A stretch of DNA of 40,756 nucleotides from an uncultured Candidatus Saccharibacteria bacterium (GTDB lineage Bacteria > Patescibacteriota > Minisyncoccia > JAHIHE01 > JAGLIN01): NCBI GenBank assembly GCA_964412905.1, contig CAYPQL010000002.1:1-40756 (forward strand), read 5' to 3'. How positions within the stretch are numbered: the stretch's first letter is position 1; the number at the start of each line of letters is the position of its first letter. Below are positions 24,093 to 33,934 of this stretch, piece after piece. The position numbers were made by a program, and so were the translations under genes. Under the pieces are notes generated by a model, which was not told the DNA's origin, ran no database searches, and saw only the letters and a list, made by a program, of their open reading frames with translations.

Positions 24093-24290
24093 ATGCGGCA
24101 ATCAAAACTTTTCGGGAAAACAATTAAAGAGGTTCCGAGGGACGAGGAGATCGTGAACGCGCGGCTTTTGATAAGGGGCGGGTTTGTGGATAAATTGATG
24201 GCGGGAGTTTATACATATCTTCCGCCGGGAAAAAGAGTCTTGGCTAAAATAGAAAACATAATCCGCGAGGAAATGGACGCGATCGGCGGG
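24093..24290 (+). pseudogene. proline--tRNA ligase 5' fragment (66 codons)
   Basis: [66 protein letters not shown] matches the ProRS N-terminus. Similarity ends at 24290, and the frame then reads unrelated sequence to the stop at 24344. Confidence 0.8.
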
Positions 24291-24292
24291 CC

Positions 24293-24570
24293 GTCAAAGC
24301 GGATCTGGCCGCGATTGTTTCTATCGCGTTGCCGGAGGGCGTGAAAGGGTTTGTGTTTCGCGACGGCGTTTTTATCTGCGATATAAAATTTTCAGTCAAT
24401 CTGGCATCTTTATTAAGGTATGATTTAATAAAGGTAGCCGAAGCCAATATGGCCTTAGTGGGAAAAGACGAAAAGTTGGAATTTACGGCGACTTGAAAGG
24501 CTTGACCGGAGGCACGATACAGGAAATAAAAATGCTGGAGCTGGGGAGCGGGGAGGAAAGTGAAAAGTAA
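24293..24570 (+). pseudogene. decayed C-terminal remnant of a DUF2130-family gene
   Basis: Frame A (24293-24496) reads KADLAAIVSIALPEGVKGFVFRDGVFICD...LIKVAEANMALVGKDEKLE. Frame B (24481-24570) reads IYGDLKGLTGGTIQEIKMLELGS. Both resemble, from memory, the two ends of the DUF2130 C-terminal region, joined by a deletion plus a frameshift. No N-terminal part is present. Confidence 0.55.
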
Positions 24571-31826: not shown

Positions 31827-32212
31827 TTAAAATTTATAATTAAATCTATTTTTAGATAATAATTAGTGTGCAACTTTGCCCCCTATTGCTAGGCGCTTTC
31901 GTTTGTTTTGTAATGATAATGCGCAAGTTATTGCGCGATAAAATATAAAAGTGAAGCATAATAAAACAACAGATGCGCGCCTCGGCTTATCACTTGAATA
32001 AATTTTGTTTAGTCGTCAATAAAAATTTATAATCCGTAGCAAGAGAACACCTCGTGGTGTTTTTAAAGACACGCAGAGTGTTCGCAATTTTTATGTTTTT
32101 TCTTTACAAATAATATCAATAGTGGTATTTTATCTATGTGCCGTGGAAAAACACACGGGGAGATAAATATAATTCATCTCAATAACTTTAAGTAAAATAA
32201 TCATACTAAATC

Positions 32213-33934
32213 ATGAAATTTTCTAAATATTTTTTAAAAACTGCCAAAAATGTATCCAATGAAGATAAAAGCGTTTCAGCAAAACTTCTTAAACAGGGCG
32301 GATTTATTCGCGAATCCGTTGCCGGGCGCTATTATTTCCTGCCTATTGGGCAGAAAGTACAACAAAAAATAATGCAAGTTATAAAGGAAGAAATGGATTC
32401 TGCGGGGGCGCAAGAAATGGTCACGCCAATTTTACATCCGTTGGAATTATGGAAAGAAACGAACAGAATCAATACTGCCGGTTTTGAGCTAATGAAAGTT
32501 AAAGATCGCCGGGGCGCGGAATTTGCTTTGGGCGGCACTGCGGAAGAAATGTTCGTTGATCTGATTCGCCAATATAAATTAAGTTACCGCGATTTGCCTT
32601 TTCAGATTTATCAATTTTCGCCGAAGTTTCGCGATGAATTGCGCGCTCGCGGAGGATTGCTTCGGGTACGGGAATTTATAATGAAAGACGGTTATTCATT
32701 TCATAAAGACGAAGAAGATTTTAAAGTTGAGTATGAAAAAATGAAAAAGGTTTACACTAGAATATTCGACCGGCTAGGTTTAAAAACTTCTATTGTAGAA
32801 TCTGATAACGGATATATCGGCGGAGAATATTGCCATGAGTTTATTGTTGAGTCAGAAATTGGAGAAAGCGCTTATTTTATCGCGGAAAAAGGTGAATATG
32901 CCGCGCACGAAGATATTGCCGTATTTAAAAAAGAGATTAAGAATAAGGAGGAGGTACAGCAGTTATTGAAAGAGGTTGATGCTGAACGAGGGGCGACAAT
33001 GGAAGACGGGGTTAAATTTCATAAATTACCTCTTTGGCAACAGATCAAAGACGTTCTCTTTGTGGATGATAAAAAAAGATTTATTCTGGCAATTATCAGA
33101 GGTGATTTTGATGTGAATGAAGTTAAATTAAAAAATCTTATTAAATCGACCACACTAAGACATGCAACAGATGAAGAGATTAGAGAACAAATTAAATCAG
33201 AACCGGGTTTTATTTCTCCGGTCGGAATTAAAAAAGGAATTGATAAAAATGTTGAGCTTGTTATTGCAGCTGATGATTCCTTAAGAACAATCGCCAATGC
33301 TTATGGCGGAAGCAATAGGAAAAACAAGGATCTTTTGAATGTGAATATTGATAGAGATTATGAGCCGGATATGGAAGGTGACATTGCTTTAGCAAAAGCC
33401 GGATATGAAGCGCTTGGCAGCGCGGGTAAGCTGTTTGAAAAATGCGGGATTGAAGTTGGAAATATTTTTCAACTTGGATATCATTACTCAAATAAAATGA
33501 AAGGCGCTGTTTATATTAACGCGGAAGGGAAGGAAAAGCCATATTATATGGGTTCTTATGGAATTGGCATTGGGCGAACAATGGCGGCTATTGTTGAAAA
33601 ATATAACGACCAAAACGGCATCATCTGGCCGAAATCAATCGCGCCGTATCAAGTTCATTTGATTTCTTTGGGCGGCGATGAAGCTGTTATAAAAGAATCG
33701 GAAAAGATATATGATTCTTTACAAAAGGAAAAAATTGAAGTATTATATGACGACCGCGACGAATCGGCGGGAATAAAATTCAAAGACTCGGATTTAATCG
33801 GAATTCCGCTTAGAATCGTGGTTAGCAAGAAGACCATGGAGAAAAATAACGTTGAAATAAAAAGAAGAGACAAAGATAATTCTGAACTTGTTAAAATTAG
33901 CGATTTAATAAATTTTTTAGAGAAAAATAAATAA
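32213..33934 (+). CDS. proS: proline--tRNA ligase (bacterial type, intact)
   Basis: Class II motifs (FRDELRARGGLLRVREFIMKDGYSF; GSYGIGIGR), an internal insertion domain and a C-terminal anticodon-binding domain. Length 573 aa. Confidence 0.92.
   Translation: MKFSKYFLKTAKNVSNEDKSVSAKLLKQGGFIRESVAGRYYFLPIGQKVQQKIMQVIKEEMDSAGAQEMVTPILHPLELWKETNRINTAGFELMKVKDRRGAEFALGGTAEEMFVDLIRQYKLSYRDLPFQIYQFSPKFRDELRARGGLLRVREFIMKDGYSFHKDEEDFKVEYEKMKKVYTRIFDRLGLKTSIVESDNGYIGGEYCHEFIVESEIGESAYFIAEKGEYAAHEDIAVFKKEIKNKEEVQQLLKEVDAERGATMEDGVKFHKLPLWQQIKDVLFVDDKKRFILAIIRGDFDVNEVKLKNLIKSTTLRHATDEEIREQIKSEPGFISPVGIKKGIDKNVELVIAADDSLRTIANAYGGSNRKNKDLLNVNIDRDYEPDMEGDIALAKAGYEALGSAGKLFEKCGIEVGNIFQLGYHYSNKMKGAVYINAEGKEKPYYMGSYGIGIGRTMAAIVEKYNDQNGIIWPKSIAPYQVHLISLGGDEAVIKESEKIYDSLQKEKIEVLYDDRDESAGIKFKDSDLIGIPLRIVVSKKTMEKNNVEIKRRDKDNSELVKISDLINFLEKNK

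Follow-up and report, generated by a model that had tools for sequence, protein, structure and literature searches.

Pieces of a native proS and a chimeric successor around a restriction-modification block in a Candidatus Saccharibacteria contig: a probable case of in situ gene displacement

Our sequence comparisons indicate that an uncultured Candidatus Saccharibacteria bacterium carries a chimeric gene for prolyl-tRNA synthetase (ProRS), proS, next to the dismembered remains of the proS that its lineage originally possessed. The DNA studied was the 40,756-nt stretch at positions 1-40,756 of contig CAYPQL010000002.1 in assembly GCA_964412905.1 (hereafter the window, to which all positions refer), with the proS region at 24093-33934. 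In this region, the first 66 codons of a short-type proS persist as a stub, whereas the working gene, located about 8 kb downstream, combines catalytic and editing parts of foreign origin with an anticodon-binding domain that is native. The stub and this native 3' tail are two pieces of one native gene, parted by approximately 9.3 kb of imported DNA. We consider it probable that this arrangement arose through in situ xenologous displacement of proS (xenologous gene displacement as the term is used in PMC1274311), with a homologous exchange on one side and an illegitimate join on the other. Loci and contigs fetched for comparison are designated by L-numbers, and the features on which this reading is built are the following.

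23720-24055, minus strand: native small open reading frame (ORF) of 111 aa directly upstream of the stub, marking the native left flank
24093-24290, plus strand: what is left of the native short-type proS at its 5' end, an orphaned stub of codons 1-66
32099-32212, plus strand: remnant of the donor's upstream gene (3' end of a 4'-phosphopantetheinyl transferase [PPTase] gene) and donor proS-proximal region
32213-33610, plus strand: foreign, xenologous segment of the working proS (codons 1 to about 466), with the class II catalytic core and the INS editing domain
33600-33637, plus strand: crossover interval, codons 463-475, at the GIIWP motif and the boundary between the catalytic and anticodon-binding domains
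33638-33934, plus strand: native 3' end of proS, encoding the anticodon-binding domain and fused in frame to the foreign part
34214-35266, plus strand: mreB, the native right flank (88-90% amino acid identity to the mreB that follows proS in L045, L046, L127, and L128)

The native state of the locus was reconstructed from syntenic relatives (L045, L046, L127, and L128/L129), which were found on long contigs by a search with RseP (65-76% identical to that of the window). These loci share with the window the gene order holB-BNR-frr-rseP-...-proS-mreB-mreC-mreD-pbp2, and in four relatives the slot between rseP and mreB is occupied by a short ProRS of 414-418 aa without the tRNA_edit editing domain. 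A synteny comparison across rseP...mreB had been proposed in an initial annotation of this DNA, and its outcome supports displacement. The 66 residues that the annotation had assigned to a ProRS N-terminus are indeed matched by the ProRS equivalog model NF006625/PRK09194 (positions 1-66; E=1e-22, 80.8 bits), as well as by TIGR00409 (E=1.5e-17) and PRK12325; Pfam is silent on the stub because its class II core model begins near residue 95. Amino acid identity of the stub was 77-80% to the first 66 residues of the short ProRS proteins of L045, L046, L127, and L128, and 41-52% to 14 long-type ProRS proteins, including the 573-aa enzyme of the window itself (45% over 66 aa), confirming that the stub and the N-terminus of the intact gene are homologous yet very different. 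At the DNA level, the stub was 72-78% identical to the syntenic relatives, compared with 73-76% for rseP and 74-76% for mreB, and its homology to orthologous proS genes stops as abruptly as first described, at nt 24291 (ATCGGCGGGC before the break and CGTCAAAG after it), with the ORF continuing to 24344 in foreign sequence. The small ORF upstream resembles a 99-aa ORF found at the same position and in the same orientation between rseP and proS in L046 (36% over 55 aa, E=5e-8), and had no family match in Pfam, NCBIfam, or PADLOC, the collections used for domain searches of the window ORFs (Rfam was used for RNA elements). Because of the synteny, the identity to short types, a DNA divergence like that of the flanking genes, and the shared upstream ORF, the stub can be identified as the 5' end of the lineage's own short-type proS, in its original place. 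Three substitutions at sites that are invariant in five functional short-type enzymes, where close relatives have none or one, are a weak sign of relaxed constraint on the stub.

A history in the opposite direction, with a long proS ancestral at this locus and the stub brought in by the island as a foreign short-type piece, would be suggested by base composition, as the stub has a GC content of 48% (56% at third codon positions [GC3]), against 37% for the resident proS and 38% for the window on average. This compositional hint of a foreign stub was misleading, however, and was rejected: the native mreB (50% GC) and other conserved native genes are equally GC-rich, whereas synteny and divergence point to a native stub. 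In addition, the short type is present at exactly this place in the four syntenic relatives, the divergence of the stub equals that of the flanking genes, its upstream neighbor is native, and the 3' end of the resident gene is itself of the native short type. This history already fails the tests run, and we give it next to no credence. A recurrence of proS stubs in the databases was also considered and rejected, as short ProRS N-terminal proteins encoded on L001 and L002 come from frameshift-ridden assemblies; in these 128-kb and 259-kb contigs, rpsB, mreB, lysS, and other genes are all fragmented, and the ProRS N-terminal proteins are artefacts of the same kind. The remaining short ProRS N-terminal proteins sit on contigs too short to judge.

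The downstream proS (32213-33934) is complete, as annotated at first: its 573-aa product scored 604.6 bits against an equivalog cut-off of 558 bits for NF006625/PRK09194, spanned profile positions 1-558 of 559, and contained, in order, PF00587 (residues 95-464), PF04073 (INS editing domain, residues 259-377), and PF03129 (anticodon-binding domain, residues 480-571). The description of this gene as intact but divergent holds for its intactness but not for divergence along its whole length, as it is a mosaic of foreign and native parts. Residues 1-480 shared 75-98% amino acid identity with the long types L003, L004, L005, and L022 but 24-65% with native short types, and nt 32213-33590 were 75-90% identical to L003, L004, and L005 at the DNA level. 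Residues 481-520, in contrast, were 78-80% identical to L045 and L046 versus 46-51% to long types, and nt 33653-33830 shared 73-90% DNA identity with L045 and L046, compared with 53-65% for long types downstream of the crossover. The segment identities switched parent between residues 461 and 480, native-level identity (~75.5%) within proS was restricted to 33544-33909 in BLASTN, and the indels past the breakpoint followed a pattern common to the native relatives. As residues 481-520 are variable among long types generally, the decisive mosaic signal is the rise in identity to native relatives and not just the fall in identity to long types.

A maximum chi-square scan with 16 parent pairs and 1,000 permutations placed the breakpoint at 33600-33637 for every pair (chi-square, 87-164; 0/1,000 permutations reached these values). 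Neighbor-joining trees of two ProRS partitions (core versus residues 470-573; 200 bootstrap replicates) grouped the core as sister to long types and the C-terminal part with the four native relatives, each in 200/200 replicates. The GIIWP motif lies at residue 469 in long types and at residue 311 in native short types; the breakpoint is in register and in frame and lies within the interdomain linker, the Pfam catalytic domain ending at residue 464 and the anticodon-binding domain starting at residue 480. Collectively, these data indicate that the working proS is a chimera in which a foreign catalytic and editing module is joined to the native anticodon-binding domain (the last ~100 codons). 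The native gene at the locus is split into stub and tail, with codons 67 to ~308 (~730 nt) missing, and the chimera, as the sole intact proS at the locus, presumably performs the proline charging of the cell.

The best database relative of ProRS residues 1-460 (P0242, encoded on L130) was 87% identical, and further relatives, including those of L003, L131, and L132, were 85% identical. The core genes of L130 showed much lower identities to those of the window (methionyl-tRNA synthetase, 46%; M16 peptidase, 50%; AI-2E transporter, 35%), whereas the core genes of L045-L128 were 54-90% identical to those of the window with a ProRS core identity of merely ~42%. Because the 87% ProRS match sits beside core genes of 35-50% identity in L130, the ProRS core was acquired, we conclude, by horizontal transfer from a distant Patescibacteria lineage. 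In L130 (10-3238), proS is followed directly by a 480-aa class II synthetase-like gene (tRNA-synt_2b and HGTP_anticodon).

A remnant of the gene adjoining proS in the donor is also preserved in the window. Nucleotides 32100-32186 encode FFTNNINSGILSMCRGKTHGEINIIHLNN, which is 69% identical to residues 190-218 of a 227-residue PPTase (E=2.8e-9), and the remnant is 75-80% identical to donor-type loci at the DNA level; in L003, L131, and L132, the PPTase gene overlaps the start of the long proS. Promoter-like hexamers occur within the remnant at 32103-32131 and 32144-32173. Because the PPTase remnant lies directly upstream of the chimera, the donor piece can be described as a PPTase 3' end followed by proS, starting near 32099.

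In the course of events that we regard as probable, the ancestral locus would have had the order rseP, small ORF, short proS (~415 aa, without an editing domain), and mreB, and the incoming DNA from a distant member of the Patescibacteria would have carried the 3' end of a PPTase gene and, behind it, a proS of the long type that includes an editing domain. The right-hand exchange may have taken place at a homologous position within proS, in the conserved GIIWP motif that separates the catalytic core from the anticodon-binding domain; on the left side, the incoming DNA would have been joined illegitimately after native codon 66, and native codons 67 to ~308 would have been lost in the exchange. 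The predicted outcome is a single in-frame chimeric ProRS, with the 66-codon native 5' end persisting as a dead stub. As the two ends of the old gene, the two junctions, and the scrap of the donor's neighbor have all survived, the event can be reconstructed base by base, and the pathway itself may have resembled homology-facilitated illegitimate recombination (HFIR) after DNA uptake. The initial annotation had offered as one of its readings that the native proS was destroyed and that a xenologous copy now serves; this was essentially right, except that the copy is not foreign as a whole, its last ~100 codons being the native 3' end.

Several points weigh against this course of events. Beyond the crossover, the DNA of the sampled long types shows just 53-65% identity to the native gene, and identical stretches at the crossover itself are ~11 nt long, which would make for a weak RecA-type anchor. 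Either the true donor resembled the native gene more closely in this part, or the right join likewise relied on microhomology, with selection for an in-frame product. No donor nearer than 87% was found, nor any sampled donor with restriction-modification (R-M) genes beside proS, and the history may have comprised one event or several. L044, the closest locus by RseP (92%), has gyrB after rseP and is silent on proS, since gyrB rather than proS comes next there. The view is limited to the 40.8-kb window, and a second proS elsewhere in the genome is possible. Finally, the chimera is a singleton on a single metagenomic contig without an independent assembly (exact look-ups of the window's ProRS and of the stub ORF for independent contigs found neither on record), and in-frame stops in res and leuS, two in the window, put some doubt on the consensus.

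These last points would fit a metagenomic assembly artefact in which DNA from another organism was stitched into the proS locus, as would the location of the right junction, since assemblers can pass from one genome to another within a conserved motif. Such an artefact would, however, need two misjoins, of which the left one, where proS codon 66 meets the interior of a DUF2130 gene, offers no shared sequence, and the conserved runs at the right junction (~11 nt) are well under assembler k-mer sizes. We consider an assembly chimera very unlikely because two misjoins would have to recreate a perfect, full-length in-frame gene between outer flanks that belong to one lineage at equal divergence.

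Direct HFIR and an insertion followed by a deletion between tandem copies both fit the final structure. In the latter, a block with a complete long proS would have been inserted at native codon 66, and a later deletion at GIIWP between the two copies would have removed the foreign 3' end together with native codons 67-308, making the chimera. This sequence of steps leads to an identical final structure, does not need a homologous anchor at entry, and draws on deletions between direct homeologous repeats, which are common. It nevertheless calls for two joins of the illegitimate kind and for a subsequent deletion that kept the reading frame exactly despite only ~60-70% identity between the sequences involved, and its intermediate was found in none of the loci compared; we therefore regard it as unlikely.

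The DNA between the stub and the donor piece (24291-32098) is of another kind than the proS donor piece and contains the following features.

24287-24568, plus strand: DUF2130 remnant (PF09903), 5'-truncated and internally decayed, at the left end of the imported DNA
24587-27544, plus strand: res, type III restriction subunit gene with an in-frame TAG (ResIII, E=4e-13, and a C-terminal endonuclease domain)
27552-29180, plus strand: Schlafen-like cargo gene between res and mod (AlbA_2 PF04326, E=3.7e-14; HATPase_c_4 PF13749, E=1.2e-11)
29334-31826, plus strand: mod, type III modification methyltransferase gene, intact (N6_N4_Mtase PF01555, E=1.6e-31; PADLOC MTase_III PDLC03632, E=1.6e-200)
31827-32098, no strand: 272-nt spacer, part of 386 nt without a long ORF (31827-32212)

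The four genes or gene remnants first reported in this block were all recovered. The DUF2130 remnant matched PF09903 profile positions 113-179 of 255 above the cut-off (E=4.8e-9, 36 bits), with a stop and a frame change after the matched part; its last ~30 codons may represent the DUF2130 C-terminus. At the illegitimate junction 24291/24292, native proS codon 66 abuts the middle of the DUF2130 gene (profile position 113). The res gene has the expected domains, including weak PADLOC REase_III matches, but it is interrupted by an in-frame TAG at 25946-25948 that the initial annotation had missed. Related res and mod genes were compared in 80 metagenome loci obtained from a scan using mod. The res product is 64-92% identical in amino acids to those of uninterrupted ~990-aa res genes in these loci, and a Tyr codon occupies the position of the TAG in 10/10 relatives with uninterrupted res genes. 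The TAG is possibly a sequencing error; because of this premature stop, res is probably inactive and restriction off, while methylation by the intact mod may persist.

Cassette homology to the 80 loci was confined to 24587-27520 and 29327-31817, and a central stretch of mod that is variable among cassettes (30104-30603) is presumably the target-recognition region. In most related cassettes, mod follows res directly, whereas others have different cargo there, and L104 has the same Schlafen architecture as the window. The res-mod spacer is a cargo slot that is occupied in L055, L060, L071, L079, L104, L121, and L124, with cargo comprising RhuM, DUF3800, Bro-N, a NYN nuclease, an AAA_15/AAA_21 ATPase, and Schlafen AlbA_2 plus HATPase_c_4 (L104). 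The 386 nt upstream of proS, described earlier as non-coding, are not featureless throughout, given the PPTase remnant within them; the 272-nt spacer has no ORF and no similarity to any fetched locus. An RNA element (T-box or similar) in the 386 nt was considered and rejected, as there was no Rfam match in the whole window. The promoter of the native proS now reads toward the stub and the res, Schlafen-like, and mod genes in the same orientation, whose transcription it may drive.

The 7.8-kb DUF2130/R-M block would have arrived either on the same composite molecule as proS or, which we find somewhat more likely, as a later settler in a selectively neutral scar. Because splitting an essential gene without a substitute is lethal, the proS exchange must have come before the R-M genes or together with them, and the R-M block cannot itself have destroyed proS. 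A single composite arrival, in which one donor molecule with the order DUF2130'-res-Schlafen-mod-spacer-PPTase'-proS made the gain of defence genes and the displacement of proS one event, has the merit of parsimony: the cell would never have been without ProRS, and the imported pieces are contiguous, co-oriented, and bounded by two junctions only (24291 and ~33610). Against it, the proS piece opens with a truncated PPTase, and the upstream genes in L003, L131, and L132 encode a megasynthase and an aminotransferase rather than R-M proteins. Neither proS nor DUF2130 was found near related res-mod genes (0/80 metagenome loci), and no R-M block was found among the long-proS donor-type loci examined, the closest long ProRS contexts included. 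The GC content of the imported pieces also differs (26-45%), and the donor itself would need to be a scarred mosaic. We therefore judge this single arrival to be somewhat unlikely, although not negligible. The same findings tell against the second reading of the initial annotation, that the island brought its own proS, as the donor piece opens with the PPTase remnant and not with R-M genes. A link between the gain of a defence island and the displacement of an aminoacyl-tRNA synthetase (aaRS) is thus possible but unproven.

An integrative element with site specificity for the 5' end of proS that brings along a replacement 5' end, comparable to islands in tRNA or tmRNA genes, would account for a gene fragment at one end and a complete gene at the other, which is a classical signature of such elements. 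No integrase, transposase, or recombinase domain was found in the ORFs between 23149 and 32212 (Pfam, NCBIfam, PADLOC), in agreement with the initial annotation, and the direct repeats that it had thought worth seeking at the block boundaries did not materialize: the longest word common to 24240-24620 and 31780-32230 was 9 nt, within the shuffle distribution, and neither direct nor inverted repeats at the boundaries rose above chance. Neither of the features by which integrase-driven islands are recognized, a recombinase gene and att repeats at both boundaries, was thus found in this region. Moreover, the replaced part comprises ~465 codons rather than a short att overlap, the crossover lies at a 3' domain boundary, and the R-M cassette is found away from proS in many unrelated settings, all of which makes an integrative element highly improbable.

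An exact 17-nt direct repeat (ATATTAATATCCATTTT; pairwise E=1e-5) brackets the whole proS region at 23717-23733 and 34197-34213, with one copy overlapping the stop codon of the minus-strand small ORF and the other directly adjoining the start codon of mreB; none of the four relatives has this repeat, which may be a chance occurrence in AT-rich DNA. Further to the left, a 163-aa ORF (23149-23640, plus strand) overlaps the 3' end of rseP and encodes tandem peptide repeats (GLRGEMKSEI / SDLRGETKSEI...); it has no counterpart in L045, L046, L127, or L128 and a weak NCBIfam match to TIGR04527 (E=4e-5). The interval between rseP and proS was also considered as a defence hot spot and rejected, since the corresponding spacers in other Patescibacteria (0.15-6.8 kb) contain ordinary genes (toxin-antitoxin pairs, kinases, G6PD). 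In L044 (Logan SRR33452766 contig, 5.2 kb), gyrB begins ~450 nt after rseP and is 95% identical to 14570-16093 of the window, the homology breaking at 23319 and restarting at 14465; the order may have been rearranged, the block from gyrB to rseP may have been duplicated, or the contig may be chimeric. Another odd aaRS gene of the window is leuS (3634-7122, minus strand). It consists of two same-frame ORFs with an in-frame TAA at 5878-5880 (...ARKYNL*FVQVV...), and in its downstream part a NUDIX domain (Pfam, E=2e-11) is inserted after the editing domain and a further long stretch ahead of the C-terminal catalytic half. A genuine split or insertion, a pseudogene, and an error in the consensus are all conceivable.

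Mosaic-looking ProRS proteins were also seen at other loci. In L011 (6479-8191, between rseP and mreB), residues 67-150 are 88-94% identical to distant long types, and the first 40 and last ~95 residues are just 22-52% identical to everything. Along the C-terminal part, the identity between L006 and L030 goes from 97% to 45% and back to 82%, and residues 481-520 of L009 are closer to short than to long types. The mosaic look of these proteins may reflect recurrent intragenic exchange or simply a hypervariable segment. A wider reading, which is speculative and in our view quite unlikely, would be that the long-type ProRS core is a promiscuous cassette that repeatedly overwrites the resident proS across Patescibacteria at conserved motifs, with the anchors and scars admitting defence cassettes. 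If this were true, many ProRS proteins of the Candidate Phyla Radiation would be domain-level mosaics that keep a lineage-specific anticodon-binding domain, and anchors in essential genes would be entry points or neutral scars for defence cassettes in tiny genomes.

Within the probable displacement of proS, the relic is unusually legible and records the replacement of an essential housekeeping gene that was never absent. It also illustrates the modularity of ProRS, as a foreign catalytic and editing module is apparently workable on a native anticodon-binding domain, and it suggests that a lineage can pass from a non-editing ProRS to one with an editing domain in a single step. For Patescibacteria, in which mechanisms of gene exchange are poorly documented, it offers a concrete example of an import driven by recombination and not by a mobile element. 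The association of the displacement with the defence genes may be coincidental, the R-M block having either travelled along or settled in the scar afterwards.

The locus preserves well the traces of processes that are already known (horizontal displacement of aaRS genes, mosaic genes, and HFIR-like integration) and comprises no new molecular system. In situ replacement of divergent aaRS homeoalleles has been documented for TyrRS, ThrRS, and SerRS (Andam and Gogarten, PMC3191353). As in those cases, an essential synthetase has been exchanged for a horizontally acquired, divergent type with the same function in a conserved neighborhood, and among relatives the same syntenic position is filled by either type. 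The homeoallele cases described involve the swap of whole genes, through recombination in conserved flanking genes or a period of coexistence, whereas the window shows an intragenic crossover at a domain boundary, an illegitimate other end, a domain chimera, and the old 5' stub left behind. The structure also resembles the products of HFIR in naturally transformable bacteria (defined in PMC3240628, citing work on Acinetobacter, Streptococcus pneumoniae, and Pseudomonas stutzeri), with one end at a homologous position, an illegitimate other end, and an insertion (~9.3 kb) combined with a deletion in the recipient (~730 nt). It differs in being a natural relic rather than a laboratory event and in the low homology of the sampled-donor anchor (53-65%, with runs of ~11 nt), a value that may differ for the true donor.

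A further parallel is offered by the Rhs, contact-dependent inhibition, and type VI secretion system toxins, in which module displacement leaves orphan fragments and HFIR has been proposed as the mechanism (PMC5361080). In these systems, as here, a new module recombines into a conserved resident part and the displaced piece stays adjacent as an orphan; in the window, however, the polarity is mirrored (the 3' part is constant, the 5' part is replaced, and the orphan lies upstream), and the gene encodes an essential housekeeping enzyme rather than a polymorphic toxin. The imported cassette resembles type III R-M systems in its strong MTase_III match in mod and in the ResIII helicase and C-terminal endonuclease domains of res, and departs from them in the order res then mod, the Schlafen cargo between the two genes, and the premature stop in res. 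Bacterial-type ProRS occurs in forms with and without the INS cis-editing domain, and Crepin et al. reportedly presented structures of the ProRS of E. faecalis and R. palustris in 2006. The two architectures, reflected in the NCBIfam models PRK09194 and PRK12325, correspond to the two parents of the gene in the window, the long type with tRNA_edit and the short type without it. Unlike either form, the predicted protein places a long-form catalytic and editing module on the short-form anticodon-binding domain of its own lineage.

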